The notes: a model not told the origin generated them from the letters alone. A stretch of DNA of 38,491 nt from Myxococcota bacterium (GCA_028284295.1 JANQSB010000132.1:1-38491); one strand, 5' to 3'. Positions 8,600 through 32,051 are shown, counted from the stretch's first letter. Made by a program: numbers and translations.

Positions 8600-8618
8600 A
8601 GTAGAGGTCCCATGCATC

Positions 8619-11548: not shown

Positions 11549-11549
11549 G

Positions 11550-16826: not shown

Positions 16827-16868
16827 CGTGGGCGCGGCTGCCGCCGAGCGCCGGTCCCGCTAGTCGGC

Positions 16869-16931: not shown

Positions 16932-17006
16932 TCCGGGGTAGCAGGCTCTCGTAGTGCGCATGCACGGCCCAGCCACTCCTCGAAGCGGGTTGGGGACGGG
17001 GGGCGA

Positions 17007-17036
17007 TTGACCGCTGTCGACTCCGGGCGGCATAAT
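17007..17036 (+). promoter_or_regulatory. Sigma70-like promoter inside an attC-like element
   Basis: TTGACC (17007-17012), 18 nt, then CATAAT (17031-17036). It lies 87 nt upstream of ATG 17123. GTCGGAC (17098-17104) sits 67 nt after the -10. Confidence 0.5.
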
Positions 17037-17122
17037 CTGGAGACAGGGTCGAGCGGGTCGGCGTCGGCGTCGTTGCTGGCCGTCGGAATGCCGATCCGTC
17101 GGACGGGGCAACGACGAGCTCC

Positions 17123-17683
17123 ATGACGCTATTCGAGTACGTCGCGATCGCCTTCTCGCTCGTCTTCTCCTTCAGCGCCATGCGGCTCCTGTCGGGTCTT
17201 CCCTATGCGATCCGCCCGGGCAAGCGCTACTGGGTTCATCTCGCGTTCGTCCTGATCCATCTCCTTGGCACCTCGCTGAGCTTCTGGGCCTTCTGGGGGC
17301 TTCGGGACACGGACTGGACGCTGCCGAAGTTCCTTCTGGTCCTCGGTTCGCCCGGTGCGGTCTTCTTCATCTCGTGTGCGCTCGTACCAGAGTCCCCCTC
17401 CGCCATCACGTCCTGGCGGAGCCACTACTTCGCGACGAGGCGTTCGTTCTTCCTCGGACTGATCGTCTGGGCTCTGGTCGGCAGCGGGGTGACGACCTTC
17501 GTCGCGGGCCTTCCCTGGCTCCATCCCGTACGAGCCAGTCAGGCCTTCCTTCTCCTGCTCGGTGCGCTCGGAATGTCCTTCGCCAGCCCGCGAGCACACG
17601 CCGCACTCGCGTTGGGTGTCATCGCCGCGCTGGCAGTCATTGCGTCGACCGTCTACTTCCAACCCGTGTCCATCCCTCGATGA
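17123..17683 (+). CDS. Hypothetical multi-pass membrane protein
   Basis: 186 aa with ~6 hydrophobic segments. Its stop overlaps the next ATG (ATGA). Confidence 0.6.
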   Translation: MTLFEYVAIAFSLVFSFSAMRLLSGLPYAIRPGKRYWVHLAFVLIHLLGTSLSFWAFWGLRDTDWTLPKFLLVLGSPGAVFFISCALVPESPSAITSWRSHYFATRRSFFLGLIVWALVGSGVTTFVAGLPWLHPVRASQAFLLLLGALGMSFASPRAHAALALGVIAALAVIASTVYFQPVSIPR

Positions 17684-18213
17684 CAGCTGCGGACGCACTG
17701 CCGACGATCGCCGAGATTGCCGTCACCCTGGCGGGCTTCAGCAGCCTCCTCGTCGTGTTTCGCCCGACCGCCACGTCCCGGTGGACCGAACACGAGCTGG
17801 TCCGGATCCGTGCGCTCATCACGACCTGTGTCGTGGTGCTCGTCTGCGCCCTGGTCCCGTTCGGACTCGCCGGGCTGCGCTTCTCCGACGACGTGAGCTT
17901 CGGAGTTCCGCTCGCGGCATACGGGCTCTTCAATCTCGTATACCTGACGCTCAACGTGAGAAAGATCATGTCTCAGAAGATCCGGGTCTCGGCCCCTCGG
18001 TTGACCCTACCGGTCCTCGCGATCTCGGCAGCGGTCAACCTCGTGGTGCTCTCGAGTGGACTCGGGATCTTCCTTCCCTTCGATCCAGGAGTCCTGGTGC
18101 CCGGCCTCGTGTGGGGACTGGTGGCCGCGGTCGTCACCCTTCTGGCGACGGTGACCTTCCTCACGCAGTCCGCGGCCGACGACCGGGAAGACGTCGAAGC
18201 CGGTCCGAGATAG
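17680..18213 (+). CDS. Cassette family B protein, copy 3
   Basis: Carries MTAADALPTIAEIAVTLAGFSSLLVVF. It is translationally coupled to 17123..17683. Confidence 0.7.
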   Translation: MTAADALPTIAEIAVTLAGFSSLLVVFRPTATSRWTEHELVRIRALITTCVVVLVCALVPFGLAGLRFSDDVSFGVPLAAYGLFNLVYLTLNVRKIMSQKIRVSAPRLTLPVLAISAAVNLVVLSSGLGIFLPFDPGVLVPGLVWGLVAAVVTLLATVTFLTQSAADDREDVEAGPR

Positions 18214-18335
18214 ACGGGCTCGGACGACCGCCGTACCGCAGCACTCGCGCGGGCACGAGATCGGGCGTGGTAGAGTGGTGGTCCGGGGAGGCGCTTCAGG
18301 TTGACTTCGCGGGAAACGCCGAGCCGTCCCGACGG
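18209..18335 (+). repeat. attC site (degenerate boxes)
   Basis: GATAGAC (18209-18215) holds the stop codon. GACGGGCTCGG is complementary to CCGAGCCGTC (18319-18328). GTGGTAGAGT box at 18267-18276, with spacing like the 132-bp class. Confidence 0.5.
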
Positions 18336-18366
18336 CGGTAGCCCCCCTGCGGTTCGGGAGCGGGGC

Positions 18367-19143
18367 GTGTCGCCTGGCAGCCTTCGGCTGTCACGAGTCC
18401 TTGCGGGGTCGCTCGCGGTCGCCGTCACCGTTTCGACCTGGGAGCCTTTCGGCTCCGGCTTCCTCATCGGCCACGGCCCCTCCTTCCGCCGCACTCTGAT
18501 CGTGATGGTGTGGCTCGCGGCCTTCTCGGCGTCCTTTCCGCGCCGCATGGGTTCCGTGCCGTCCCAGGGAGTGTGGGCGGCATCGTGGATCGTGCTGCTC
18601 CCGTTGGCTCTGTTCTGCTGGTGGCGCTACGCGGATGCCTGAGGTTCACGACGAGGCCCGAAGGGTCCGGCCGCCAGGCGGCAGCCGTTGAGCGGGCTCA
18701 CCTATGCGCAGTACCTGGCGAGGCGCGGCCTATCGGGCCAGGCTTCCACGCGAGAGGTGCTGCTGGGCCCGTGGTCCGCACCGGGCTTCCACCTGTTCTG
18801 GCGCCGCTGGAATCCGCACCTCGGGTACCTGCTCTTCCGCACCTATGTGGCCCTGGGCGGCGGCCGCCACCACGCGCTCTCTTCTCTCGTCGTCTTCCTC
18901 CTCGCCGGCGCGGCCCATGACCTCGTGGTCCCGCTTCTCACCGGCTTCCCGTCGATCGGCGTGACGGTCGCGTTCGGCTTCTATTGGGCCGCGAGCAACG
19001 GCTGCCGCATCGCCGGGAGCTTCGCCCGCTTCCGAAGGTGGCCGAAGTCCGCCTGCGTGTCGCTCAACCTGGCTCTGGTCGGGGCCGGTCTCGCTCTCGG
19101 CGGAGTGGCGCAGCACGCCTTCCTTGCCCGTATCGCTGCCTAA
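18367..19143 (+). pseudogene. MBOAT_2 / wax-synthase-like membrane acyltransferase interrupted by an in-frame TGA
   Basis: ORFs 18367..18642 and 18688..19143 are in the same frame and separated only by the TGA at 18640-18642. The downstream part carries PWSAPGFHLFWRRWNPHLGYLLFRTYV, the MBOAT FWRRWN motif. Confidence 0.5.
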
Positions 19144-19261
19144 CATTCTCGGGAAGAGCGCCCCCCGGCATGTGGGGAGGCATCGCGGCACCGACGCGTC
19201 GCGGTTCGCAGCGCCCGCAGCCTGCGGTACCCTCCCCGTGCGATTCACTCTCGATCCAGGC
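19138..19261 (+). repeat. attC site (long-class left arm)
   Basis: R'' GCCTAAC at 19138-19144 holds the stop TAA. TACCCT box at 19228-19233. The site ends GATCCAGGCGG (R'-like TCCAGGC at 19255-19261). Confidence 0.55.
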
Positions 19262-19277
19262 GGAGTGGCTGTCCCTC

Positions 19278-19520
19278 TTGAGCCTGCAAGACCTCGGTAG
19301 CATCGGCGAGCTCATCGGCGCGTTCGCCGTCGTCGTCTCGCTCGTGTACCTGTCGTCCCAGATTCGCCAGAACACGAGGCAGATCGACGAGAACACCAGG
19401 GCCGCGCAGGCCGCCGCCTCCGATTCCAGCATCCGCCACGCCTTCGTGGCGCGACGGATGATCATCGAGAACGAGGACGCCTCGCCCACGGCGATCCGAG
19501 CTTGCGTCGGGGGCATCTAG
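19278..19520 (+). pseudogene. Cassette family A gene, 3'-truncated (80 aa)
   Basis: TTG start. SLQDLGSIGELIGAFAVVVSLVYLSSQIRQNT is intact, but the ORF stops at about half the family length, at TAGCCGTGTCGGA. Confidence 0.6.
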
Positions 19521-19536
19521 CCGTGTCGGACCAGCG

Positions 19537-20316
19537 ATGACCCAGCTGACCGGACGAAACGGAATCTCGATCGGGTTCGAGACCTTCGGCTCGGGTCCGC
19601 CCCTGGTGCTCGTCCACGGTGCGTTCACGAACCGCGTGTCCAACTGGATCACCGTTCGGGACGGGCTGGGTGCGCGCTTCACCGTCCACGCCGTGGACCG
19701 ACGCGGTCGTGGGGAGAGCTCCTCCGAGCCCGCGAGCTCGACTCGTGATGAATTCGATGACCTGGCCATGGTGATCTCTTCGGTGGAAGAGCCGGCCTTC
19801 GTGCTCGGACACTCGTACGGTGCCCACGTTGCGCTGGGGGCCGCGTCGCGGGTACCCGAGAAGGTGCGGAAGCTGATTCTCTACGAGCCTCCCACGGCGA
19901 GCTCGCTCTCGGCCGAGACGGCGCGTGCTCTCGAGAACGATGCCCACCGTGCCGATTGGGACGCTTTCGTCGCCCGCTTCTTCCGCGAGGTGGCCCAGGC
20001 TTCCACCGAAGAGCTCGACGAGCTTCGGAGCTCGCCGATCTGGGGAATGCTCGTCGATGGAGCGAAGCCGACGGTTTCGGACATTCGTGCGCTCCGCAGC
20101 TACGACTTCGATCCGCAGGAGTTCCGTTCCCTGGCCGTTCCCGTGACCTTCCTGTGCGGAAGCGAGAGCCCGACGATTCAGTCCGTGACGACGGACGAGC
20201 TGATGGCGACGCTCCCGGATGCCACCCGGATCGAGCTCGAGGGGCAGGGGCACGACGGGATGTATCGCAACCCGCGGCAGTTCATCGATACGGTGGAGCG
20301 GGTCTTCGGGTCGTAG
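19537..20316 (+). CDS. Alpha/beta-fold hydrolase
   Basis: 259 aa. PPLVLVHGAF forms the oxyanion region, VLGHSYGA is the nucleophile elbow GxSxG, and there is a C-terminal GHD. Confidence 0.85.
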   Translation: MTQLTGRNGISIGFETFGSGPPLVLVHGAFTNRVSNWITVRDGLGARFTVHAVDRRGRGESSSEPASSTRDEFDDLAMVISSVEEPAFVLGHSYGAHVALGAASRVPEKVRKLILYEPPTASSLSAETARALENDAHRADWDAFVARFFREVAQASTEELDELRSSPIWGMLVDGAKPTVSDIRALRSYDFDPQEFRSLAVPVTFLCGSESPTIQSVTTDELMATLPDATRIELEGQGHDGMYRNPRQFIDTVERVFGS

Positions 20317-20320
20317 CCGT

Positions 20321-20429
20321 GTCGAAGCATCGGCTCGATTGACCGGGGTCGCCGTCTGGCGGCATACTGCCGGCTCGGGTCGCACCCAGTCACCGCGATC
20401 GCTGGCCGCGGAGCGCCGATCCGTTCCGC
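20321..20429 (+). repeat. attC site (TTGACC-N18-CATAMT class)
   Basis: Starts with GTCGAAG (20321-20327). The left arm CATCGGCTCG is complementary to CGGAGCGCCGAT on the right. R' GTTCCGC at 20423-20429. Confidence 0.55.
20339..20368 (+). promoter_or_regulatory. Sigma70-like promoter inside attC
   Basis: TTGACC (20339-20344), 18 nt, then CATACT (20363-20368), reading toward the family A gene at 20480. Confidence 0.5.
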
Positions 20430-20479
20430 CGGTCGGCCGTGCAGGCGCGAACACTCACCCTGGAAAGGCACCCTCTCCG

Positions 20480-20983
20480 ATGACGAACAAGCGCAGCGGG
20501 TTGGAGCAGGCCGCTCTCGTCGCGGAGATCCTGGGTGGGATCGCGGTGGTCGTCTCGGTGATCTACCTGGCGGTGCAGATCTCCGACAACACCCGCATCC
20601 TCCGCAGTCAGACGCACTACAGCGCTCTCGAGGCACTGCAGAGGCCCTTCGAGATGATGCTCGAGAGCGACTCGCTGGCCGAGCAGCTCGTCGCGTGTCG
20701 CGAGGCACCGCACGGTGTCGCGGAAGCCGTGTGGAGACGCTGCCGGAACTACTACTTCATGCAGGCGAACGGCTGGGAGTACACCTACTACCAGCATCTC
20801 GACGAGGCCCTGCCGCCGTCGCTCTGGCCCGGCGTGGACGGATACATGGGCGGTCAGGCCCGGACCAATCCGGGCTGGGTGCGCTTCTGGGAGGAGATGG
20901 CCGACGGCTTCGGCGAGCCCTTCCGTTCGTACATCGAGGAGCGGATCCGGGAGAACCCGGCGCACGGCCAGCCGCGCGAGTAG
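20480..20983 (+). CDS. Cassette family A protein, copy 4 (divergent)
   Basis: Carries LEQAALVAEILGGIAVVVSVIYLAVQISDNT...NPGWVRFWEEMADGFGEPF, which preserves the TM, the QI(R/S)xN motif and the PGxxxxW features. Confidence 0.7.
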   Translation: MTNKRSGLEQAALVAEILGGIAVVVSVIYLAVQISDNTRILRSQTHYSALEALQRPFEMMLESDSLAEQLVACREAPHGVAEAVWRRCRNYYFMQANGWEYTYYQHLDEALPPSLWPGVDGYMGGQARTNPGWVRFWEEMADGFGEPFRSYIEERIRENPAHGQPRE

Positions 20984-21088
20984 GAGGCGGCGCTGGGTGG
21001 GCCGCTCGGCGGTCGGCCCGGGCGGGTTCGGCCGGGTGTGGCGAAGGGGTCGTGATACCCTGCTGCTTTCGGCACTGGAGACCCCCCG

Positions 21089-21361
21089 ATGACGCTCGAG
21101 AAGCTCCGTATCCCCCACTTCCGCCCTCTCCTCCTCCTCCCGTCGCTGCTGGCCCTCGGCGTGGGATGCGCGATCGGGCCCCCCGACGAAAAGGGCGAAG
21201 GTTCCAGGCTGCGGGACGACATGTTGCGCAACCAGGCCTGCGAGGCGCGGGATCTCCGGGCCGACACGAGCTCTCCCGCGGATCCGATCCGGTCCCGGTG
21301 CACCGGGCCCCGTACCTGGGTTCCCGCCAGCGGAGCGACAGGGGACACAGCGGCCACTTGA
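21089..21361 (+). CDS. Small lipoprotein, unknown function
   Basis: 90 aa. The signal LLLLPSLLALGVGC carries a lipobox. A GTGATACCCT box lies 28 nt upstream. Confidence 0.5.
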   Translation: MTLEKLRIPHFRPLLLLPSLLALGVGCAIGPPDEKGEGSRLRDDMLRNQACEARDLRADTSSPADPIRSRCTGPRTWVPASGATGDTAAT

Positions 21362-21381
21362 CGCGAGACTCTTCACTCCGG

Positions 21382-21858
21382 GTGTTCCCGCGCTCCTGGT
21401 TGTGGCTGTTCCCGCCGGGCTACCTGGTCCATCTCGTCGACGAGCGCTTCTTCGGTGAAGGCACCGCCGCCTGGGCGACGGCCCATATGGGGGTCCATCT
21501 CACCAACCAGGCCTGGCTCGTCATCAACGTCGTGTGGTTCGTCGGCTTCTTGCTCGTCACCTGGTTGATCGCGCGGGGCAGCCTGCCGGAGTGGGTGGCT
21601 CTTGCCCTGGCGACCCACTTCGCCATTCACGCCCTCACGCGGGTCTGGGGCTCTGCGGTGTTCCCCGGGTGGTCGCCCGGCGTCGTGAGCGGTGTCGCGG
21701 TGGGGCTTCCCTGGGCGGGCGCCGTCTTCCTTCGCGGTCTGCGAGAGCTCGAAACGAAGCAGGTCGCCCTGGCGGTCGGGTGCGGCGTTCTCAGTCTTCA
21801 ACCGCTCTGGGACTTTCTCATGCTCCCGATCCTGTCTCCGCGGCCACCCGCCGTCTAG
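21382..21858 (+). CDS. HXXEE-like domain membrane protein, copy 1
   Basis: GTG start 20 nt after the lipoprotein stop. Carries GYLVHLVDERFFGEG (HxxDE). It is a paralogue of 27943..28461, sharing a ...VSGV...LS(L/F)Q(P/A)(L/P)WD(F/L)L tail. Confidence 0.65.
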   Translation: MFPRSWLWLFPPGYLVHLVDERFFGEGTAAWATAHMGVHLTNQAWLVINVVWFVGFLLVTWLIARGSLPEWVALALATHFAIHALTRVWGSAVFPGWSPGVVSGVAVGLPWAGAVFLRGLRELETKQVALAVGCGVLSLQPLWDFLMLPILSPRPPAV

Positions 21859-21972
21859 GCGACACCGGGCGTTGTTGCAGCGTGGTATCCTGGCGCGCGT
21901 CCGTGGCTTCGAGCGTGCTCGGTAGATCGCCGGCTCGAGCCGAAGCCCCGCTCCGGTGGCGAAGAGCGTGTC

Positions 21973-22557
21973 ATGGGTGACGAGATTCGGGGCAGCTGTC
22001 TCTGCGGTGCGGTCGCGTACGAGATCCCCGCTTCCGACATCGGTGTCGTCACCACCTGCTACTGCTCGCTCTGCCGCAAGAACCACGGCGCGGAGCGGAG
22101 GCTGCGGGCGTCCGCCCGGACCCGAGGATTCCGCTGGGTCGCCGGAGAGCCGCTACTGCAGCGCTACCGGTACGCGCCCGAGCGCGAGAAGGTATTCTGC
22201 AGGGTCTGCGGAACTCCCCTCGTCAACGCGTACCTCGACCAGCCGGAGCTGCTGGGGCTGGCGATCGCCACCCTCGACCAGGACCCCGGCAAGCGGAACG
22301 TCCTGCACCTCTTCGCGGCCTCCCGGCCGGAGTGGATCGAGATTCGCGACGACCTCCCGCAGCTCGACACGGTCCCCGACATGCTCGGGCGCGTCGTCCG
22401 GATCGACCCCGACCACGTCTTGCTCGAGACGGAGCCCGGCCAGCAGCACCGGATTCGCGTCCACGCGGAGGCGGGCGACTTCAGCGTCGGGGACCGTGTC
22501 CGGGCTTCCCTCGCTCACGGCGAGAGAGGCTTCCGTGTGAGCGTCGTCGCCCGCTAG
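21973..22557 (+). CDS. GFA-family (CENP-V/glutathione-dependent formaldehyde-activating-like) protein with C-terminal extension
   Basis: Cys-rich zinc motifs IRGSCLCGAVAYEI...CYCSLCRKNHG...FCRVCGTPL, followed by ~55 extra C-terminal residues. Confidence 0.75.
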   Translation: MGDEIRGSCLCGAVAYEIPASDIGVVTTCYCSLCRKNHGAERRLRASARTRGFRWVAGEPLLQRYRYAPEREKVFCRVCGTPLVNAYLDQPELLGLAIATLDQDPGKRNVLHLFAASRPEWIEIRDDLPQLDTVPDMLGRVVRIDPDHVLLETEPGQQHRIRVHAEAGDFSVGDRVRASLAHGERGFRVSVVAR

Positions 22558-22587
22558 GCTGCCAGCACTCGTGGCGAACCCGTCTCC

Positions 22588-23316
22588 ATGTCCGAAGCTC
22601 CGAAGTTCCTGACGGCGCGCTGGGTCCACCTCGCGATGCTCAACTACGAGGTGGACCCGGCCATCCTCGAAGAGCGCGTTCCCGACGGCACGGAGCTCGA
22701 CGCCTTCGAAGGGACCTGCTTCGTCAGCATGGTGGGCTTCCAGTTCCTCGACACCCGCGTCCTCGGGGTTCCGGTGCCCTTCCACCGCGACTTCGACGAG
22801 GTGAACCTGCGCTTCTACGTGCGACGAGCCGAAGACGACGGGCTCCGCCGAGGCGTCGTGTTCGTCAAGGAGATCGTCCCACGCGCGGCGATCGCGTGGG
22901 TCGCCCGACGCGTCTACAACGAGAACTATGTGGCACTCCCCATGTCCCACGACGACGAGGTGGGCCGTAGCCCGGAGCCTCGCGTCCGCTATCGCTGGGA
23001 CTACGGCGGTCGTCCGCATCAGCTGAGCGTGCGAGTCGCGGGCTCTCCCTGGCTGCCGGACGAGAGCAGCGAGGAGTCCTTCATCACCGAGCACTACTGG
23101 GGCTACGTGCGCCAGCGCTCCGGCTCGACGCTCGAGTATCGCGTCGAGCACCCTCGCTGGAAGGTCTGGCGCGCGTCCGAGGCCGAGCTCGACTGCGACG
23201 TGTCGAGCCTGTACGGATCCGAATTCGCCCCGTTCCTGGCCGCTCCTCCCAGCTCCGCCTTCCTCGCCGAGGGATCGGCCGTGGCGGTGCGGCAGGGCCG
23301 GGCGCTGCCCCGGTAG
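22588..23316 (+). CDS. DUF2071 (YqjF-like) family protein
   Basis: 242 aa. FLTARWVHLAMLNYEVDPAILEERVP...FHRDFDEVNLRFYV resembles DUF2071. Confidence 0.65.
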   Translation: MSEAPKFLTARWVHLAMLNYEVDPAILEERVPDGTELDAFEGTCFVSMVGFQFLDTRVLGVPVPFHRDFDEVNLRFYVRRAEDDGLRRGVVFVKEIVPRAAIAWVARRVYNENYVALPMSHDDEVGRSPEPRVRYRWDYGGRPHQLSVRVAGSPWLPDESSEESFITEHYWGYVRQRSGSTLEYRVEHPRWKVWRASEAELDCDVSSLYGSEFAPFLAAPPSSAFLAEGSAVAVRQGRALPR

Positions 23317-23471
23317 GAGCACCTGCTCGGGAAGGGGCAGTCCAGGTGCGGTCGGGCGCACGCGCCCGCTGGGCTACCTTCGGGCTCTCGACGCGGAGAC
23401 GATGGAGGAAGCCCGGGAGCCGCCCTCCTCCCTCGTCGACCCGACCGTCGAGCACATGGGAGGGCCGAGCC

Positions 23472-23906
23472 ATGATCGAGTCTCTTGGCCACGTCGTCAT
23501 CAAGGTCCGTGACCTCGAGGCGTCGGAGCGCTTCTACGCCGAGACTCTCGGCATCGAGGTCCAGTCGCGCTCCGAGTCGGCCCGCATGACCTTCTTCACG
23601 CTCGGTCGGCACCACGACTTCGCGATCATCGCGATCGGTGGCTCTGCGCCGCCGGCTTCCGAGAAGGCGATCGGCACACACCACATCGCCTTCCAGGTCT
23701 CGGGCGGTCTCGAGGGTCTCCGGGAAGCCAAGGCGCGTCTCGAAGCGGAAGGCGTCACGGTCGCGCCCGTCGATCACCGGGTGACGAAGTCGCTCTACTT
23801 CAGCGACCCGGATGGAAACGCGCTGGAGCTCTGCGTAGACGGGTCGGACGAGTGGAAGTCGAACCCGGATTCCCTCTTCGCTCCCGCAAGCGAGCTCGAG
23901 CTCTAG
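23472..23906 (+). CDS. VOC (glyoxalase/extradiol dioxygenase-fold) protein
   Basis: GGGAGGG RBS. Carries MIESLGHVVIKVRDLEASERFYAETLG...HHIAFQV...LYFSDPDGNALEL. Confidence 0.8.
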   Translation: MIESLGHVVIKVRDLEASERFYAETLGIEVQSRSESARMTFFTLGRHHDFAIIAIGGSAPPASEKAIGTHHIAFQVSGGLEGLREAKARLEAEGVTVAPVDHRVTKSLYFSDPDGNALELCVDGSDEWKSNPDSLFAPASELEL

Positions 23907-23912
23907 CCTCGC

Positions 23913-24389
23913 GTGTCGCCCTCCGTGGACGCGACGCACTCAGATCTCCGAACGGGCGAGGCCCATCCGGCCGAGGTGCCCGACTCGCGGTCGCGCTGGC
24001 TGCTGCGGGGCTCGCTGGTGGTGGCCTGCGCGATCGCGGTGGTCGCCTGCTGGGGTCTCGGAAGTCCGGCGCCACACCTGGAGAGCGATCCCGAGCTCGC
24101 CCGCCTGTTGCGGTCGATGGTGTTGCTGAAGGCTGCGGTGATGGTCGCGGCGTTCGCGGGCCTGATGTGGCGCTTCCGCTGGCCGCTGTCGCTCGGCCTC
24201 GGGTCCGGCTACATCGCGGCGGCGGCTCTCGCCTCCGGGTCCCTCGTCCCGATCTGGAATCTCACGCACGTGGCCGTTGCGGCCGTGCTGTTCCACGTGG
24301 GTGCGGCGATGCTCGTCGTCGGCGCCCTGCTCGATCGATCCGCCCCGTGGCGCCTGCCGGGCTCTGCCTCTTCGGGGCGCGTCGTCTGA
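23913..24389 (+). CDS. Hypothetical membrane protein
   Basis: GTG start 6 nt after the VOC stop. 158 aa with four hydrophobic segments. Confidence 0.5.
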   Translation: MSPSVDATHSDLRTGEAHPAEVPDSRSRWLLRGSLVVACAIAVVACWGLGSPAPHLESDPELARLLRSMVLLKAAVMVAAFAGLMWRFRWPLSLGLGSGYIAAAALASGSLVPIWNLTHVAVAAVLFHVGAAMLVVGALLDRSAPWRLPGSASSGRVV

Positions 24390-24435
24390 TCTTCTCCATC
24401 GCGGTGGCGCGAGGCGCCGGCGGGATCCCCATCAC

Positions 24436-24948: not shown

Positions 24949-24974
24949 CTGGCGAGCGCGCGATCGGCGCTCGG

Positions 24975-25532
24975 ATGCAGGAGGCCGGATCGGTGTCGCA
25001 CGTTGCGGAGTGCTTCCAGACCCCGCGCCTCGAGGCGGAACGCCTGGCGCCCCACCACCTGGACGATCTGCTCGCTCTCCACCGGGATCCCGAGGTGATG
25101 GCGGAGCTGGGCGGCGTCCGGGACGAGGAGCAGACGCGGCAGTACCTCGCGCGGAACCTCGAGCACTGGGCCGAGCACGGGTTCGGGGTGTGGATGCTGC
25201 GGGAGAAGGAACGCCCCGAAGTCGTCGGGCGGGCGATCCTCCGCTTCCTGCCGCTTCACGGAGTCCAGGAAGTCGAGGTCGGCTTCGCGCTGTACTCCCG
25301 GCTCTGGGGGCGTGGGCTCGCCACCGAGGTCGGCGGGGTCTGTGTGAAGATGGCCTGGGAGGAGCTCGGGGTGGAGACGCTCGTGGGCGTGACGACCCCG
25401 ACCAACGCGGCCTCCCAGCGCGTGCTCCAGAGGCTCGGCTTGAGCTACGAAGAAGAGGTCGTGTTCGACGGAGCGCCGTACCGGGTGTACCGCGCGGCCC
25501 GCCCTGCCGATCATCGGCCCCGCTATTCGTAG
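24975..25532 (+). CDS. GNAT N-acetyltransferase (RimJ/RimL-like)
   Basis: Carries FQTPRLEAERLAPHH...GFALYSRLWGRGLATEVGGV...NAASQRVLQRLG. Confidence 0.75.
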   Translation: MQEAGSVSHVAECFQTPRLEAERLAPHHLDDLLALHRDPEVMAELGGVRDEEQTRQYLARNLEHWAEHGFGVWMLREKERPEVVGRAILRFLPLHGVQEVEVGFALYSRLWGRGLATEVGGVCVKMAWEELGVETLVGVTTPTNAASQRVLQRLGLSYEEEVVFDGAPYRVYRAARPADHRPRYS

Positions 25533-25897
25533 TGGCGGATCTCGATCAGGTGCTTGTCGGGGTCGAAGAGGTAGAGGGATGCGCCGGGGCCGCGCGCGCC
25601 CTCCTCCTCTCCGGGGCCCTTCCCGTTGCCCACGGAGTGGAAGGAGTCGCCGAACTCGATGCCGCCTTCGCGAACCCGTCGGAAGATCTCCTCGAACTCC
25701 TCGCGAGGCATCGAGAACGCCAGGTGCTCGCCGCCCTTGGTTCCCCAGGGCGCCAGCTGGATCGTGAAGTCGGGCGAGACCCGGATGACCGTGAAGGGCT
25801 CTCGCTTGCTTTCGTGGGTCAGGCCGAGGATCCCGGTGTAGAAGCGGACGCTCTCCTCGACGTCGTTCACGTGTAGGATGAGGTGGTCGAGCACCAT
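25523..25897 (-). CDS. VOC (glyoxalase-fold) protein
   Basis: Carries MVLDHLILHVNDVEESVRFYTGILGL...LYLFDPDKHLIEI, with GGAGGAAGC upstream. It is convergent with the GNAT gene and overlaps it by 10 nt. Confidence 0.8.
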   Translation of the reverse strand: MVLDHLILHVNDVEESVRFYTGILGLTHESKREPFTVIRVSPDFTIQLAPWGTKGGEHLAFSMPREEFEEIFRRVREGGIEFGDSFHSVGNGKGPGEEEGARGPGASLYLFDPDKHLIEIRHYE

Positions 25898-25981
25898 GCT
25901 GCTTCCTCCGGCCCGAGGACCATTCTAGCGCGCGAGCGTGGTAGACTCGGGTGGTCCATCAAGTCGGAGGGGAGAAGAGAG

Positions 25982-26209
25982 ATGCGAGCATTCATTGCTG
26001 CGGTCGCGACCGCACTCGCTGCGAGCCCGGCGAGCGCCCACCCGGACCACCGCGCAGGTGAAGCCGTCGGGCTCCTCCACTATCTGGCAGATCCCTTCCA
26101 CGTGGCCACGGGCCTCGTCGCCGTGGGCGCGGTGATCCTGGGCCTGGCGGTCTGGCGGTCTCGCCGCTCGGTCGCCCGTCGCTCCGTGACGGTGGAACGG
26201 CACGGCTAG
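25982..26209 (+). CDS. Small signal-peptide/TM protein resembling the N-terminus of HupE/UreJ metal transporters
   Basis: 75 aa: ALAASPASAHPDHRAGEAVGLLHYLADPFHVATGLVAVG. A GGAGGGGAG RBS and a GTGGTAGACT box lie 35 nt upstream. Confidence 0.4.
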   Translation: MRAFIAAVATALAASPASAHPDHRAGEAVGLLHYLADPFHVATGLVAVGAVILGLAVWRSRRSVARRSVTVERHG

Positions 26210-26271
26210 CGAGGGGATGTCGCTGCCACAAAGGGCTCGGGTCCGCGAGTCGAGCAGCAGGAGCCGGTGCC

Positions 26272-26760
26272 ATGGCGCTCCTCCTCAAGAACCTCCTCTT
26301 CACCTTCCTGGTGCCGGGTACGGTCGCGGTGCTGGTGCCGTGGCTCCTCACGGGTGATGCCGAGCCCCGGTCGGGAGCCTCGCTTCCCATCGCCGCGCTC
26401 CTCCTGGCCGTGGGTGCGTCGATCTACGTCTGGTGCGTGTGGGACTTCGCCTCCTTCGGGCGCGCCACTCCGGCGCCCATCGATGCGCCCACGCGACTCG
26501 TCGTCCGGGGTCTCTACCGCTTCAGCCGGAATCCCATGTACGTGGGCGTGCTCGCCGTCATCCTGGGGCAGGCGGTGCTGTTCCGATCACCGGGGCTGGC
26601 GGTCTACGGCGCGGTCGTCGCCACGTGCTTCCAGGCGTTCGTCCTGCTGTACGAAGAGCCCCACCTGGAAGCGGAATTCGGAAGCGAGTACACGTCCTAC
26701 AAGTCCCGGGTCGGGCGCTGGCTTCCCCGCCCACAGCCGGGCGACCGACGGCTCGTCTGA
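26272..26760 (+). CDS. Isoprenylcysteine carboxyl / phospholipid methyltransferase-family membrane protein
   Basis: Carries LVVRGLYRFSRNPMYVGVLAVILG...LYEEPHLEAEFGSEYTSYKSRVGRW, the ICMT/PEMT signature. Confidence 0.8.
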   Translation: MALLLKNLLFTFLVPGTVAVLVPWLLTGDAEPRSGASLPIAALLLAVGASIYVWCVWDFASFGRATPAPIDAPTRLVVRGLYRFSRNPMYVGVLAVILGQAVLFRSPGLAVYGAVVATCFQAFVLLYEEPHLEAEFGSEYTSYKSRVGRWLPRPQPGDRRLV

Positions 26761-26788
26761 GCGCCGGCCGCGGCCGGAGGAGGCAAGC

Positions 26789-27208
26789 GTGTTCGAGCTT
26801 CTCGCAACGGCCTGCTCCGGCATCTTCGCGGGTGCTGCCATCTACATCTCGGTGGGTCAGGGGCCTGCAGCCCGTGAGGTGGGCGACGACACGGCAGCGG
26901 CCCTCTTCGGCCCCATGTACCGACGCGGCGCGCCCATGCAGGCCTCCCTCGCGCTGATCGGATCGATCTCCGGGTTCATCGCATCGGCCACGGGCGGTGG
27001 GGTCGGCTGCTTCGTCGGTGCGCTGCTGCTCGGCTCGGTGGTTCCGTTCACCCTCGTCGTCATCAAGCCGGTCAACGACCAGCTCCTGTCTCCCGACCTC
27101 GACACCTCGTCGCCCGAGGTCCCTGCGCTCCTGGACCGCTGGGCTCGCCTCCACGCGGTGCGGTCCGTGGCCAGCGGGCTCGCGTTCGGGCTGTTCCTGG
27201 TCTCGTAG
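26789..27208 (+). CDS. DUF1772 (anthrone-oxygenase-like) membrane protein
   Basis: GTG start after GGAGGAGG. Has four TM segments, and ...VIKPVNDQLL...WARLHAVRSV resembles DUF1772. Confidence 0.6.
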   Translation: MFELLATACSGIFAGAAIYISVGQGPAAREVGDDTAAALFGPMYRRGAPMQASLALIGSISGFIASATGGGVGCFVGALLLGSVVPFTLVVIKPVNDQLLSPDLDTSSPEVPALLDRWARLHAVRSVASGLAFGLFLVS

Positions 27209-27247
27209 GTCTCGCAGGTCTCGCAGGTAGAGGAGGGAGAGGCCGCG

Positions 27248-27946
27248 ATGCGACGAGACACGCGATCCCTGCTGCTGGCGGCTCTGGTCGGGCTGTTCAT
27301 GGCAGGCGCCCAGCCATGGATCGCGCACGCTCAGCCCGGTTCGCAGGCGAGCTCGCAACCCGTGGACCGCGTGGGTCTCGACTGGCTCTGCCCCCTCGTC
27401 GAGTACGAGAGCCGGCGAGAGCTCGAGGACCACCGGATGGAGCTGGAGCTGCTCCGGATCGAGTACCGCGCACGCAGCCAGGTCTTCGAGATGGTCGATC
27501 AGCTGTGGGCCGCGCACGCCATCGAGCAGGAGCTCTACCTGGACTACAAGCGACTCCGCGACCGCACCAAGCTGGGCATCGCCCGGCTCGTCGCTCTCGT
27601 ATCCCGACAGGAGAGCGCCGTGGAGCAGTACACGCTCGCGTGCTCCCCGCTTCGGGGCCGCTCCGTCGACGGTCTGCCCGCGAAGATCGCCGAGCTCCAG
27701 GCGCGGTACCGTCGGCTCGACTGTGAGGTCCTGGCCCGGGACGCCGATGTCGCGCAGGTCGACTACGAGTTCGATCGCGAGATTCTCGAAGCGACGAGAA
27801 AGCTCAACAAGCGGGACATCAAGTCGAAGTACGAGCTCGTCGTCGACGAATTCGATCTCGGCCAATCCAAGGCGCGCCTGGAGAGCCATCGCCGTCGCGC
27901 CCGCGAGTGCCGGAAGCGCCTGCAGGCCGGTCAGCCCGCGCCATGA
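27248..27946 (+). CDS. Secreted coiled-coil protein, unknown function
   Basis: Signal peptide LLLAALVGLFMAGAQPWIAHA, followed by a charged heptad-like sequence. Confidence 0.6.
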   Translation: MRRDTRSLLLAALVGLFMAGAQPWIAHAQPGSQASSQPVDRVGLDWLCPLVEYESRRELEDHRMELELLRIEYRARSQVFEMVDQLWAAHAIEQELYLDYKRLRDRTKLGIARLVALVSRQESAVEQYTLACSPLRGRSVDGLPAKIAELQARYRRLDCEVLARDADVAQVDYEFDREILEATRKLNKRDIKSKYELVVDEFDLGQSKARLESHRRRARECRKRLQAGQPAP

Positions 27947-28461
27947 GCGCACGGCCGCAGCTCTCGCGACGCCCCGTGGCGGAGCCAGCCGCAGCACCAC
28001 GCCCGGCGCTCTTCGTCGCCGTCTACGCGATCCACCTGCTCGACGAGGGGCTCGTGCAGGGGGGTCTGGCGGCGTGGTCGACCCGGAACGGATTCCACTT
28101 CTCGATCGAGAACTGGGTCTTCGTCAACGTCGTCTCGATGCTCGTCGTGACGACGGCCATGCTGCAGGTGGCGCGGGGCCGATGGCCTTCCTGGCTCCTC
28201 GTCTCGATGGCCGTTCACCTGCTGCTTCATGCGGCCATCCATGTCGTGGCGACCGTCTTGTGGCAGTCGCTGTCTCCGGGAGCGGTCTCGGGCGTGCTCG
28301 TCGCTGCGCCGCTCGCGTTCGTGACGCTGCGGTGGGGCTGGCGTTCCCTCGACTCTCGCAGTCTGATCCTTGGATCGTTGGTCGGGGTGCTGAGCTTCCA
28401 GGCTCCCTGGGATCTGCTCGTCCGGGTACTCTTCGGGCTTCCCCTCTGGTCCGCCCCGTGA
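27943..28461 (+). CDS. HXXEE-like domain membrane protein, copy 2
   Basis: Its ATG overlaps the upstream stop (ATGA). Carries VYAIHLLDEGLVQGG. It is a paralogue of 21382..21858. Confidence 0.65.
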   Translation: MSARPQLSRRPVAEPAAAPRPALFVAVYAIHLLDEGLVQGGLAAWSTRNGFHFSIENWVFVNVVSMLVVTTAMLQVARGRWPSWLLVSMAVHLLLHAAIHVVATVLWQSLSPGAVSGVLVAAPLAFVTLRWGWRSLDSRSLILGSLVGVLSFQAPWDLLVRVLFGLPLWSAP

Positions 28462-28487
28462 CCGGTAGAATGAGGGGATCGACCCGG

Positions 28488-28796
28488 GTGCCGACGGGGG
28501 ACCTGGCCACGGCTGACTTCAAGACGACTCCGATGCTGCGTCGCGAGGCAGGGCTCCAGCGCCTTGCGGGCCTCCTGGACGAGCTGCGCGCCCTCGAAGG
28601 CCTGCGCGAGAAGCGACCGGGGACCTTCTCGCATCGCTCTCGCGCCTTCCTCCACTTCCACTACCACCCGGATGGACGGATCGTCGCCGATGCGAAGCTG
28701 TCGGATGCCGGCTTCTCGCGCTTCGACGTCTCCGAGCCCTCTGGCCAGCAGGAGCTGCTCGCCGGGATCCGGCGCTTCCTGTCCTCGGAACCGTGA
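28488..28796 (+). CDS. Small hypothetical protein
   Basis: The open frame runs from ATG 28470, which overlaps the TAGAAT box; in-frame GTG at 28488 and ATG at 28533 are alternatives. Carries ...RAFLHFHYHPDGRIVADAKLSDAGFSRFDV. I could not place it in a family. Confidence 0.45.
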   Translation: MPTGDLATADFKTTPMLRREAGLQRLAGLLDELRALEGLREKRPGTFSHRSRAFLHFHYHPDGRIVADAKLSDAGFSRFDVSEPSGQQELLAGIRRFLSSEP

Positions 28797-28803
28797 GAGC
28801 CCC

Positions 28804-29580
28804 ATGCAGCGATCACCGCGAGCAGAGAAGTATCCCGACCTCGACGAGATCTACTCCCAGTGCAGCGGGCCCGGCGCGCTGCGGACTGCGGAGTTCGTGG
28901 CCGACAAGATCGGTCTGCGTGAAGGCATGCGCGTGCTGGACGTCGGGATCTACCGGGGCATCCAGACCTGCTTCCTCGCCAAGGAGTACGGGTGCCTCAT
29001 GGTGGCCGTCGATCCCTGGCTGGACGACTTTGACCCCGCTGGCGATGGCAGGCCCTTCGTCGATCACCTCCGTCGCAATGCCGAACGCTGGGGCGTTGCC
29101 GATCGCGTGCTGGGCTTGCGACTGGGCCTGCCGAAGATCCGCTTCGCCGATATGTCGTTCGACGCGGCGTACTCCAGTACGGCGTTCGAGATGATCCGGG
29201 GGCTTCATGGCGACGATGAGTACCTCGCTTCGCTGAGGGAGGTGTTCCGGGTCCTCCGGCCCGGGGGCGTGTTCGGTCTCGCCGAGCCGATGCATCGGGG
29301 AGGCCCTCCCCCGGTCGACCTGGAGCCCCTGGTCTCCGAGGGTCCCCTGCCGTTCAAGAAGTGCCTGGCGACTCCGGAGCAGACGGCCGAGCAGCTTCGC
29401 GAGGCCGGGTTCGAGGTCCTGGAGGCGGGACATGCTCCCGACGCGAAGGAGTGGTGGGAGGAGTTCGCGACCCACGACGACGAGTGCCGACGCAATCCCG
29501 AGGGCAATCCGCGCATGCTGGCCGTGGACGCGGGTCGCTGGATCAGCTTCGGCTACGTGGTCGGGAGACGGCCGGCGTGA
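28804..29580 (+). CDS. SAM-dependent methyltransferase
   Basis: Carries VLDVGIYRGIQTCFLAKEYGCLMVAVD...LRPGGVFGLAEP. Confidence 0.7.
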   Translation: MQRSPRAEKYPDLDEIYSQCSGPGALRTAEFVADKIGLREGMRVLDVGIYRGIQTCFLAKEYGCLMVAVDPWLDDFDPAGDGRPFVDHLRRNAERWGVADRVLGLRLGLPKIRFADMSFDAAYSSTAFEMIRGLHGDDEYLASLREVFRVLRPGGVFGLAEPMHRGGPPPVDLEPLVSEGPLPFKKCLATPEQTAEQLREAGFEVLEAGHAPDAKEWWEEFATHDDECRRNPEGNPRMLAVDAGRWISFGYVVGRRPA

Positions 29581-29885
29581 TCGGCAGGATTCCCGAGTCC
29601 ATGGTCGCCTATCGGCGAACTCCCGAGTTCACGGAGCATTCGGTTCCGGACGCGCTGCGTCGGAATCACTCGACGAAGGCCGGCGTCTGGGGTTTGATCC
29701 ACGTCCTGGAGGGCTCGCTCCTCTACCGGGTGGCGGGCCCCCCCGCCGAAGAGGTCCTTCTCTCGAAGGAGCAGCCGGGTGTGATCGAGCCCGAGGCGTT
29801 GCATGCCGTCGAGCCTCGAGGGGCGGTTCGCTTCTACGTCGAGTTCTGGCGCGAGCCAACGGAGGACGGGCCCCATGATGGCTAG
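29577..29885 (+). CDS. DUF1971 (TehB N-terminal-like) protein
   Basis: Its GTG overlaps the upstream stop (GTGA); an alternative ATG lies at 29601. Carries YRRTPEFTEHSVPDALRRNHSTKAGVWGLIHVLEGSLLY. Confidence 0.65.
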   Translation: MIGRIPESMVAYRRTPEFTEHSVPDALRRNHSTKAGVWGLIHVLEGSLLYRVAGPPAEEVLLSKEQPGVIEPEALHAVEPRGAVRFYVEFWREPTEDGPHDG

Positions 29886-29895
29886 AGGGCCTTCC

Positions 29896-30441
29896 ATGGA
29901 GCTGCGGCCCGCTTCCGACTCCGATCTTCCCGCCATCGGCCGGCTCCACGTGGATGCCTTCGGTCCCCAGGAAGGACCGGAGGTCGCCGACCTGGTGGCG
30001 GATCTGCTGCGCGACGAGACCGCCCTGCCCCGTGTGTCGATCGTGGCCGAAGCCGACGGTGTGCTGGCAGGCCACGTCCTGTTCACGGCGGCCGGTCTCG
30101 ATTCGGATGCGGCGAGTCCCGTCGCGAGCATCCTGGCGCCCCTGGGTGTCGCTTCTGGGTATCAGCGTCAGGGAGTGGGAGGGCTGCTGGTCGATCGGGG
30201 GCTCGCGCTGCTGATCGAGCAGGCCGTCGATCTCGTCTTCGTCCTGGGACATCCGAGCTACTACCCGCGCTTCGGGTTCCGGCCGGCTCGGGAGCTCGGC
30301 TTCGACGCGCCCTACCCCATTCTTCCGGAGAACGACGCTGCATGGATGGTGAAGGCGCTGCAGCCCGGGGCGCTGGATCGCTTCGCGGGTACCGTCGCTT
30401 GTGCGTCGGCCCTGGATCGTCCGGAGCACTGGACGGAGTGA
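29896..30441 (+). CDS. GNAT N-acetyltransferase (YhbS-like)
   Basis: Carries MELRPASDSDLPAIGRL...LGVASGYQRQGVGGLLV...YYPRFGF. Alternative starts at 29875 and 29878. Confidence 0.75.
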   Translation: MELRPASDSDLPAIGRLHVDAFGPQEGPEVADLVADLLRDETALPRVSIVAEADGVLAGHVLFTAAGLDSDAASPVASILAPLGVASGYQRQGVGGLLVDRGLALLIEQAVDLVFVLGHPSYYPRFGFRPARELGFDAPYPILPENDAAWMVKALQPGALDRFAGTVACASALDRPEHWTE

Positions 30442-30537
30442 GGCGGCGCCCAGCGATCCCGGCTGGGGTAGCCTGGGGATCGTGATGGCGTCCTGATTCC
30501 GCACCGCGAGGACCCCGGCCAGGAGGACGAGCCCCTC

Positions 30538-31038
30538 ATGGAAGGTGCCGACATCCTTCAGACGATCGCCGAGGTCGCGATCGCATTGACGGGCTTCACG
30601 GGGATCGTCGTCGCGCTCGGCAATCGCGGAGGCGTGCCGGTCTCGGGATTCGCCCTGGTGCGCTTCCGGATCCTGCTGGCGGCCAGCCTCGCCGCGCTCG
30701 CCTTCTCGCTGATTCCCTTCTTCTGGTACTACCTCGACATCCCCGCGAGCACGTCCTGGGCGGTCTCGAGCGGTCTGGCTCTGGTCTTCATGGTCCCGAT
30801 CGTCGTCTACGACGTTCGCGCCTTCCGCGAGCATGCCGATCAGATCCCGGTCTTCGAGCGACGAGCCGCGCCCGCCATCGCGATCCTGGGCGCCTCGCTG
30901 TGGCTCGCCCAGGTGGCGAACGTGCTGCACTTCCGCTCGTTCGGACCCTACCTGGCGGTTCCCCTGTGGTTCCTCGGCTTCTCGGCCCTCTCCTTCGCGC
31001 GGCTTCTCTTCACGCGTCAGGGTGGAGAGCATCCGTGA
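30538..31038 (+). CDS. Cassette family B protein, copy 5
   Basis: Carries MEGADILQTIAEVAIALTGFTGIVVAL. A GGAGGA RBS lies upstream. Confidence 0.7.
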   Translation: MEGADILQTIAEVAIALTGFTGIVVALGNRGGVPVSGFALVRFRILLAASLAALAFSLIPFFWYYLDIPASTSWAVSSGLALVFMVPIVVYDVRAFREHADQIPVFERRAAPAIAILGASLWLAQVANVLHFRSFGPYLAVPLWFLGFSALSFARLLFTRQGGEHP

Positions 31039-31045
31039 GCCGGGG

Positions 31046-31069
31046 GTCTCTCGGGCCGGCTCGGGAGAC
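31046..31069. terminator. GC-rich hairpin between convergent genes
   Basis: GTCTCTCGG...CTCGGGAGAC forms a stem of ~8-10 bp (with G-U pairs) between the stops at 31038 (+) and 31079 (-). There is no U-tract. Confidence 0.35.
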
Positions 31070-31078
31070 GCTGAAGGG

Positions 31079-31450
31079 TCAGGACTGCGACGCCGCGTCG
31101 ATGGAGATATCGAAGTACTCGTCGTCGCTCGCGTCTTCCCGGACCTCGCTCGACGTGCTGTGAACGGGCTCGGTGGCTCCCGGTGGCCAGATCACCAGGT
31201 AGATGTCCGGGCTCGACTCGGCGACGTCCTTGAAGTCGGCATCGGTGAAGCGGATCTCGAAGCGGCCGTCGGAGTCGGTGTCGCACTCGCCGAGGAAGTC
31301 GTCGGACCAGACGTCCTTGTCGAAGGCCTGAACCCGATGGCCACCCAGCGGCTTCCCGGTGCGCTCGTCGCGTACCACACCTCGTACCCGGAAGCGCTGC
31401 CAGCGGATCCAGGGTACGCGAATCGTCTTCCCCACGTCTCGCTCCTCCAT
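31079..31450 (-). CDS. Transthyretin-like / carboxypeptidase-regulatory-like beta-sandwich protein
   Basis: VRGVVRDERTGKPLGGHRVQAFDKD...TDSDGRFEIRF...DIYLVI is the typical pattern. The gene is inverted in the array. Confidence 0.55.
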   Translation of the reverse strand: MEERDVGKTIRVPWIRWQRFRVRGVVRDERTGKPLGGHRVQAFDKDVWSDDFLGECDTDSDGRFEIRFTDADFKDVAESSPDIYLVIWPPGATEPVHSTSSEVREDASDDEYFDISIDAASQS

Positions 31451-31558
31451 CTGCAGCGGGAGTCGAGTCTACACGAGGAACTGGCCCGGACGGGCTGCGG
31501 TACGATTCCGACGAGCTTCGCGCGGCGCTGGAGAGGCTCATCGGACAGGCGGTCTTCG

Positions 31559-31936
31559 ATGGCGCAGATCGGCTACGTGATGGTCGGCACCAACGATCTG
31601 GCCCGGGCGGTCGGGTTCTACGACGCGCTCCTCGGCGGGCTCGGCGCCACGCGCTTCAGCGAGACGGACCGGGGCGTGTCCTGGTCCTTCGGTGTCGGCA
31701 CCACCAGCCTGTGCGTCACCGAGCCCTTCGACGGTGCTCCGGCGAGCGTCGGCAACGGGACGATGGTCGCGCTCGGCCTGCGCGACCGGCAGCAGGTGGA
31801 TGCCGCGCACGCGCGAGCCCTCGAGCTGGGGGCCGCCAACGAGGGCGACCCGGCCCCGCGTGGCTCTGCGGGCTTCTACGCCGGCTACTTCCGCGACCTC
31901 GACGGCAACAAGCTGAACCTGTTCTGCATCGGGTAG
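31559..31936 (+). CDS. VOC (glyoxalase-fold) protein
   Basis: Carries MAQIGYVMVGTNDLARAVGFYDALLG...GYFRDLDGNKLNLF. Confidence 0.8.
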   Translation: MAQIGYVMVGTNDLARAVGFYDALLGGLGATRFSETDRGVSWSFGVGTTSLCVTEPFDGAPASVGNGTMVALGLRDRQQVDAAHARALELGAANEGDPAPRGSAGFYAGYFRDLDGNKLNLFCIG

Positions 31937-31982
31937 CCTCGAGGGCACGCGAGGACACCTCGCGCATCACGCGCACAGCGCG

Positions 31983-32012
31983 TTGACCCCGGCCGGCCGC
32001 GGGAGGCATAAT
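31983..32012 (+). promoter_or_regulatory. Sigma70-like promoter upstream of the Coq4-like gene
   Basis: TTGACC (31983-31988), 18 nt, then CATAAT (32007-32012), 40 nt before ATG 32052. The architecture matches the promoters at 17007 and 20339. Confidence 0.5.
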
Positions 32013-32051
32013 CCGCCTCGGGCCGAGATCGACGGCGACGGGAACCGAACG

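Follow-up and report, generated by a model that had tools for sequence, protein, structure and literature searches.

A subclass of integron attC sites with a promoter-like central module, and its decayed copies in a Myxococcota cassette array

We describe a subclass of integron attC sites, here named P3, that is 132–136 nt long and carries a promoter-like module in its centre. P3 is real and widespread: it is found in relatives of the Myxococcota bacterium studied here at the level of genus, family, order and class, and in marine metagenomes, and its central part, TTGACC-TTGGTTGCCGTCTGGCGG-CATACT, is always directed from the R'' to the R' end of the site, that is, at the next cassette. The DNA at issue is a stretch of 38,491 nt (GCA_028284295.1, JANQSB010000132.1; ‘the window’), which is the whole of contig C251 in a 5.85-Mb, 718-contig assembly from a coral metagenome. 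It holds three exact copies of TTGACC-N18-CATAMT on the + strand, at 17007–17036, 20339–20368 and 31983–32012 (sites 1, 2 and 3). Sites 1 and 2 are fossil attC sites of the P3 type, which keep the promoter-like motif and have lost their core sites and end pairing; site 3, placed before a Coq4-like gene, we take to be an ordinary promoter with hexamers of this type. On the sequence evidence set out below, we estimate at roughly 0.6 the probability of the P3 module being an active promoter.

The initial annotation of this DNA had reported the three motif copies, which are borne out at exactly these coordinates, and had taken them as a subclass of attC that carries a −35/−10 pair. The existence of such a subclass is upheld, both by the intact copies of relatives and by the scores of sites 1 and 2 with a covariance model; its description in the window needs amending, in that sites 1 and 2 are decayed and site 3 is not supported as an attC.

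Intact P3 sites in relatives and metagenomes

The annotation had also suggested that the signature be sought in related genomes and its position compared with the attC arms, and there it does recur, centrally within attC sites of ~134 nt with canonical ends. We searched 60 relatives with the bare motif pattern and, as a control, with the same pattern read backwards, which gave close to zero matches in these 60 genomes. Matches to the motif are clustered, lie on one strand and are conserved in the 18-nt spacer too; a single contig (G001:C28) holds six copies within 27 kb. The layout that emerges is GCCYAAC-AAG-GCGTTGCAGCGGACCAGCAACAGC-...TTCAA-TTGACC-N18-CATACT-...GGTCAGC-GCTGTTGCTGGCCGCTGAACGC-CGATCC-GTTRGGC: the ends, GCCYAAC and GTTRGGC, are ~134 nt apart, and in intact copies (one is G002:C14:105102–105236) they match the R'' and R' core sites (RYYYAAC and GTTRRRY).

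These sites fold as attC sites do. In an alignment of 22 sequences, 92.4% of the cells of the hairpin are paired, as against 14–52% when the partners are slid, and none of 500 shuffles reached the score of the stem. Compensatory changes occur in 12 pairs of the stem (for example CAGCGG/CCGCTG versus AACCGG/CCGGTT), and the consensus displays both an unpaired column, 16, and a spacer asymmetry (AAG versus CGATCC). In the consensus fold GGTCAG is the pairing partner of the −35 hexamer; the 22 sequences show no covariation between the TTGACC and GGTCAG sides of this helix. The spacer, the −10 hexamer and the predicted transcription start lie in the unpaired apical region, between the strands of helix 47–52/98–103.

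P3 sites also stand where attC sites are expected. An integrase gene, intI, scores above the TIGR02249 family cut-off in all seven P3-carrier genomes tested, and arrays are directly beside intI in three of them (G020:C51, G001:C32 and G043). Coding sequence is co-oriented with the attC upstream in 77/90 cases, and downstream, within the 360 nt examined, in 75/87, which is also the agreement between the downstream coding strand and the direction of the promoter-like module. In these three arrays (G020:C51:63503–66338, G001:C32:232–4799 and G043:C1:4376787–4385318) intI is on the same strand as the cassettes and the array lies 3' of the end of intI, unlike the textbook divergent layout.

For a count across the class we used a stricter signature, TTGRCC-N13-GGCGGCATAMT, which 40 of 225 genomes carry, representing 24 of 90 genera, the control pattern being found in none. 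Several families of the order are represented among the carriers, as is a single genome from a different order. Metagenomes yielded at least 74 distinct P3 copies, chosen by the 3' arm alone, and P3 is abundant in those from marine sediment; coral samples also contain intact sites. The P3 motif is absent from 80 loci around the closest integrases of named genomes, which are 49–60% identical and span many phyla.

At one locus of a relative (L086; G043:C1, ~4.375–4.378 Mb), contigs from DNA runs (X4–X6) join attC sites across 380–1745 nt, for example 537 to 2235, at a depth similar to that of the main path. These joins could be excision variants of cassettes, or paths of the assembly graph through repeated attC sites.

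The copies in the window

TTGACC-N18-CATAMT had no match in 100 dinucleotide shuffles, and a generic sigma70 scan of both strands of 12.5–32.4 kb returned exactly sites 1–3, where 0.9 would be expected by chance. Only four exact matches occur in the 5.85-Mb genome, three of them in the window contig and the fourth at C535:11027, 8 nt 5' of a non-array gene (459 aa); a TTGACT variant is found in a second cassette-array contig, C208. In all three window motifs the hexamers are spaced as in sigma70 promoters (16–19 nt apart; here 18 nt each) and carry A−11 and T−7, which in site 1 are the A at position 2 and the T at position 6 of the −10. Measured against TTGACA/TATAAT, sites 1 and 3 match at 10/12 positions and site 2 at 9/12. 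That the motifs read into the open reading frames (ORFs) that start at 17123, 20480 and 32052, as first proposed, also holds: all three ORFs are co-oriented with them.

To compare these copies with P3, we built a covariance model, R1, from 22 intact P3 sites of other genomes, and searched the window with it without filters. The features concerned are as follows.

12867–13001, +: fourth P3-type attC copy, absent from the initial annotation, hexamers mutated to TCGACT...CACACT; R1
16869–16925, +: remnant of a GFA-family gene (MVRTYRGSCHCGRIQFEVDG...), broken off just 5' of site 1; read from sequence
16967–17104, +: site 1, decayed P3-type attC, R''-like GCCCAGC at 16967–16973, R'-like GTCGGAC at 17098–17104; R1
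17007–17036, +: motif of site 1, −35 TTGACC at 17007–17012, spacer gctgtcgactccgggcgg, −10 CATAAT at 17031–17036
17123–17683, +: 186-aa ORF into which site 1 reads; codon usage, no Pfam family
17680–18213, +: 177-aa ORF coupled to the 186-aa ORF; codon usage
20301–20429, +: site 2, decayed P3-type attC, 3' arm conserved, R' mutated to GTTCCGC at 20423–20429; R1
20339–20368, +: motif of site 2, −35 TTGACC, spacer GGGGTCGCCGTCTGGCGG, −10 CATACT
20480–20983, +: 167-aa ORF (‘family A’) into which site 2 reads; codon usage, no Pfam family at E up to 0.01
31983–32012, +: motif of site 3, stand-alone and sigma70-like, TTGACC-N18-CATAAT; 39 nt separate it from the Coq4-like start codon
32052–32813, +: Coq4-family ORF of 253 aa; Pfam PF05019, 1.6e-26, residues 22–221
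C208:15013–15149 of the same genome (G000), −: P3-type attC in the second array contig, TTGACT-N18-CATACT, ends GAGCGCCGGGTCCGCGAGGC; arm z scores 7.0 and 10.4

R1 finds its best match in the window at site 2 (20301–20429; 56.5 bits, E 6.3e-13), closely followed by the copy at 12867–13001 (53.3 bits, E 4.1e-12); it matches site 1 over its full length (16967–17104; 38.6 bits, E 2.3e-8) and scores the C208 copy at 55.8 bits. By this model sites 1, 2 and 12867–13001 are homologous to attC in sequence and structure. R1 also matches window sites at 3919, 2050 and 4155, which belong to a 132-nt attC class with an extended −10. Independently of the hexamers, we aligned the arms semi-globally with the hexamers removed, and compared the scores with those of shuffles: z for the 5' and 3' arm, respectively, is 2.7 and 9.5 for site 1, 1.5 and 11.6 for site 2, 5.0 and 9.4 for 12867–13001, and −1.1 and −0.5 for the generic promoter on C535. 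The significant R1 scores together with the homologous 3' arms indicate that sites 1 and 2 are derived from attC, in degenerate form.

The degeneration itself is visible in several features. Neither site has the core-site consensus: site 1 (GCCCAGC...GTCGGAC) has one mismatch per box, and site 2 lacks R'' and ends in GTTCCGC. The 5' arm of site 2 overlaps the end of an alpha/beta-hydrolase gene (19537–20316) and is not recognisably conserved. Outside the hexamers the two sites are 67–69% identical to the P3 consensus (67% in site 1), and the spacer of site 2 matches it at 15/18 positions. Hairpin folding of sites 1 and 2 is no better than that of shuffles (z 0.0 to 0.7; ~0.5 for site 1 and ~0 for site 2), with no end-to-end pairing, and DNA folding of the C208 copy gave no hairpin; we read these failures as decay rather than as an absence of attC ancestry. 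Hidden Markov models (HMMs) of the 165-nt and 132-nt attC classes of the window gave E 19 or no match for sites 1–3. Sites 1 and 2 probably no longer recombine. From site 1, transcription is predicted to start at ~17043–17045, with a leader of ~80 nt to the ATG at 17123, and from site 2 at ~20375–20377, with a leader of ~105 nt to the ATG at 20480.

Two sequence strings on which the initial annotation had relied fare unevenly. The GATCCGT/GATCCGC ends are present, and those of sites 1 and 2 match the conserved attC end, ...GCCGATCC followed by GTT; at site 3 the string is made by codons 7–11 of the Coq4-like ORF. As an R'-like string, GCCGATCCGT alone is unspecific, with 40 copies genome-wide, and only the combined arm is informative. 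Of the YTCGARG boxes, only that of site 1 corresponds to an attC feature, the L'' box TTGMAGCGG; the model aligns a different stretch at site 2, and nothing at site 3.

Site 3 is a separate case, and the claim that it is an attC element is not supported. R1 gives a non-significant 8.8 bits there (32006–32083; E 0.87), the arm z scores are −1.1 (5') and 2.5 (3'), and no DNA homologous to the 150 nt around it was found in 40 relatives. It has no core sites, and the GCTGGGC found there is coding sequence. The annotation had left two options, namely that the ORF starts inside an attC or that the site is no longer a functional boundary; comparison of orthologs settles the matter as coding sequence. 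Codons 7–11 of the ORF (RIRWA) yield the R'-like string GGATCCGCTGGGC, and the alignment with two orthologs (70% and 61% identity) begins at residue 6. The ortholog in G008 lies in a non-array chromosomal context behind a different, AT-rich upstream region, and reads DRIRWGDARAAL where the ORF here reads RIRWADARAAL; because the RIRWA stretch is conserved in a non-array ortholog, the R'-like end of site 3 is coding sequence and not a site boundary. We also considered site 3 as a truncated P3 site, and rejected this on the covariance model, the alignment of the arms against shuffles, the ortholog comparison and the DNA search in relatives.

Two further observations concern this locus. A perfect 11-bp inverted repeat, 32011–32021 and 32064–32074 (ATCCGCCTCGG and CCGAGGCGGAT), flanks the Coq4-like start codon on both sides; since the −10 and the predicted start overlap its 5' half, the repeat may matter only in read-through transcripts. 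Coq4-family genes are very numerous in the lineage: 47 of 61 genomes have matches, often 3–9 paralogs each, mostly outside arrays.

Proposed promoter activity and the alternatives

What would the central module do? A sample unbiased with respect to the hexamers was obtained by scanning metagenomes with the 3'-arm pattern only, which gave 74 distinct elements among the matches listed; the counts in this paragraph refer to these. CATACT is kept in 60/74 and TTGACC in 49/74, and A−11 and T−7 in 70/74, even in such variants as CACACT, CATAGT and CATGAT. Mean column identity is 0.93 in the −10, 0.89 in the −35, 0.885 in the 5' stem and 0.65 in the 10 nt after the −10: the −10 is thus the best-conserved block outside the selecting pattern, and the 10 nt that follow it are the least conserved.

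The comparison of 87 distinct related attC sites, matched by R1 in the arrays of relatives, reveals a second promoter architecture that is nearly mutually exclusive with the first. On the R''-to-R' strand, 37 sites have a full −35/−10, 34 an extended −10 (TGnTAnnnT), one has both, 13 have a bare TAnnnT and two have none; the sample is enriched for full promoters, since many of its loci were fetched with the motif itself. The opposite strand has no full promoter, one extended −10, none with both, 10 bare TAnnnT and 76 with none. Either module can be carried by the same arms: L135–L137 read TTGGTAGYCT-TCTGGCGTCAACC where P3 has TTGGTTGCCG-TCTGGCGGCATACT. The one site with both (L115; G001:C28:155566–155729, − strand) is a composite attC of 164 nt, in which the P3 module is followed 12 nt later by the extended −10 TGGTAGAAT.

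The organism does use hexamers of this kind at its genes. Among 6-mers, TTGACA and TAnnnT show the strongest enrichment in the regions upstream of 2,408 genes of this genome, where CATACT is enriched 9-fold and CATAAT 12-fold, with a sense bias; GGCATAMT has 10 of its 16 occurrences in the intergenic 8% of the genome, 9–119 nt upstream of a gene. In the window, both hexamers are intact in sites 1 and 2 despite the decay of their recombination features, and in two of three decayed copies the capacity to recombine thus seems to have been lost before the promoter hexamers, which points to selection for expression.

Several observations weigh on the other side. The copy at 12867 has lost both hexamers. 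The −10 begins with C and not T and the spacer is 18 nt, both of which are suboptimal, and TTGGCC replaces the −35 in 12% of elements (9/74 among the matches listed). The whole attC is strongly conserved (stem 0.885, −35 0.89, −10 0.93), so that the excess in the hexamers is only modest. CTGGCGG, just 5' of the −10, is equally conserved, is common to the extended −10 sites and is unexplained by a promoter, and stem pairing with GGTCAG could explain the −35. As for RNA, the only run found to hold the window is a DNA metagenome run, and those that hold the G043 locus behave like DNA, with a flat depth of ~230x. Metatranscriptome contigs show that P3-type sites are present in RNA libraries; they carry no 5'-end information and cover the attC from end to end, a pattern as compatible with read-through or DNA carry-over as with internal initiation.

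Much of this opposing evidence is shared with an alternative that we regard as unlikely, in which recombination alone would account for the conservation of the central TTGACC...CTGGCGGCATACT block (through hairpin geometry, or binding of IntI or a host factor), or the attC family is young and homogenised, and the likeness to a promoter is coincidental. Conservation per column is indeed ~82–93% over the entire attC, as it is for the Vibrio repeats and other species-specific attC families; TTGACC does pair with GGTCAG in the consensus fold; and CTGGCGG, as conserved as the −10, recurs in the extended −10 sites. On the other hand, in sister sites with identical arms a perfect TGnTAnnnT, ~14 nt further upstream, takes the place of the module; the two modules hardly ever occur together (37, 34 and 1), and on the opposite strand they are almost absent. 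Recombination alone also sits badly with A−11 and T−7 being retained even in variant hexamers (70/74 among the matches listed), with a −35 and GGTCAG that do not covary, and with hexamers that survive in sites 1 and 2 where arms and core sites have decayed.

Two alternatives remain. In one, to which we give a low probability, the element mainly aids recombination: melting of the open complex at the apical −10 would nucleate extrusion of the attC hairpin and so couple mobility to transcription, expression of the next cassette being a side effect. The apical, unpaired position of the −10 and the predicted start would suit such a role, as would the central location of both promoter types; the promoter persists, however, in fossil sites that are unable to fold, which argues that expression is what is selected there. 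In the other, which is very improbable, all three window motifs are ordinary gene promoters unrelated to attC, and their clustering would come only from a large number of short transcription units, each independent of the others. This reading suits site 3, the same pattern precedes the non-array gene at C535:11027, and GGCATAMT serves this genome as a generic −10 variant. It is refuted for sites 1 and 2: both are significant, full-length matches of a model made from the intact attC sites of other genomes, and their 3' arms show homology even with the hexamers set aside (z 9.5 and 11.6); furthermore, three of the four exact matches genome-wide are in the window contig.

In intact P3 sites the canonical R''/L'' and L'/R' boxes form the usual recombination hairpin, with the promoter-like module in the central part. 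If this module is an active promoter, RNA polymerase would start ~7 nt after CATACT, and the transcript would cover only the descending attC arm and then the next cassette; with each junction supplying its own promoter, expression would be independent of distance from the integron platform. In the distal, decaying array, the arms and core sites of sites 1 and 2 have eroded and neighbouring cassettes are thereby fused, the promoter hexamers remaining intact. A wider generalization is tentative, and we hold it plausible rather than probable: nearly every attC of the class would be dual-function, hairpin and promoter, in two interchangeable architectures (−35/−10 or extended −10), and every cassette would be transcribed from the site of its upstream neighbour anywhere in the array; melting at the apex may in addition couple transcription to attC folding.

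Relation to known systems and array context

In the standard model, promoterless cassettes are silenced with distance from Pc. P3 bears on the question of what keeps the distal cassettes of a chromosomal integron, which number in the hundreds, expressed and in place: were its promoter active, each junction would be an expression unit, and the promoter would move with the upstream cassette. The element is compact (~135 nt) and forms a directly testable module, with relevance for cassette-based gene discovery and for the annotation of attC sites and cassette boundaries in high-GC marine lineages.

P3 resembles the attC sites of sedentary chromosomal integrons (59-base elements, such as the ~129-nt Vibrio cholerae repeats) in its GCCYAAC...GTTRGGC ends, its L''/L' boxes and its long, imperfect, covarying hairpin, and also in being taxon-specific, highly conserved, 3' of co-oriented ORFs and arrayed beside intI. 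It differs from the Vibrio cholerae type in that its central part holds a complete −35/−10 promoter-like module aimed at the next cassette; the window copies differ further, in lacking core sites and fold. The extended −10 attC sites of the 132-nt class in the same array share with P3 a superfamily, an orientation, a proposed function and, in some copies, the same arms; P3 by comparison has a −35 and a −10 without TG, and this −10 is ~14 nt further downstream.

Cassettes and attC sites are generally described as promoterless (PMC11014356; PMC8876359). Known exceptions are promoters in the 5' untranslated regions (UTRs) of cassettes, in toxin–antitoxin cassettes, in gene-less cassettes and in group IIC-attC introns (PMC8876359; PMC11014356; PMC3001079). 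One internal promoter of DAT722 overlaps an attC junction (PMC2945992), and transcription starts inside the attC of the gene-less cassette F2 (PMC11014356). A P3 promoter would be like those of DAT722 and F2 in freeing distal cassettes from dependence on Pc. Those are individual promoters, mostly in cassette 5' UTRs or gene-less cassettes (PMC8876359), whereas that of P3 would be a fixed, homologous part of a whole attC subclass, situated in the site of the upstream cassette and present in 40/225 genomes. Group IIC-attC introns with outward promoters (PMC3001079) likewise place at the attC an element that drives downstream cassettes; in that case the promoter is in the inserted intron, and here it would be in the attC sequence, with no intron present. 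Sites 1 and 2, without intact R'' and R', are similar to fused cassettes, in which the attC is lost or truncated (PMC4670013; PMC8876359), and their flanking cassettes would be permanently joined; unlike fused cassettes, these remnants keep the internal promoter-like module, and the downstream gene is probably still transcribed separately. Full-text literature searches turned up no attC class described as having a promoter built in and conserved.

The window as a whole is a cassette array: gene calling by codon usage gives ~55 mostly small genes, nearly all on the + strand. Canonical attC sites, long and with paired GCCYAAC...GTTRGGC ends, are found at 498–9368 and fall into two classes, of ~165 and ~132 nt, within the first 9.4 kb. 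HMMs of these two classes detect no canonical attC beyond ~16.4 kb, and the three motifs thus sit in the decaying, distal part of the array. The attC sites lie 3' of cassette ORFs in an array on one strand, to be linked with the integron integrase that this genome carries on contig C482 (9119–10060; TIGR02249, 410 bits versus a cut-off of 265). An attI-like sequence, TCAATAACTAGTTRGGC, follows the stop codon of intI on C482 and is also found at ~C209:20030.

A few local observations complete the picture. Window positions 16827–16925 hold a degenerate attC 3' end (GCTGCCGCCGAGCGCCGGTCCCGCTAGTC) followed by the truncated start of the GFA-family gene, so that site 1 follows a broken cassette; a Pfam scan of the 85-aa ORF of this remnant assigned no family. 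A second attC-like remnant, carrying TGGTAGGCT, lies at ~13025–13110, 3' of the copy at 12867–13001. The first ~108 nt of the window (1–108) are identical to part of contig C208 (reverse complement of 1160–1260), and a repeated cassette segment probably broke the assembly at the window start. Finally, the ORF at 11550 is immediately preceded by a tandem repeat of 12-nt units (GAAGGAGCGAGA-like), four to five in number, at 11501–11560.

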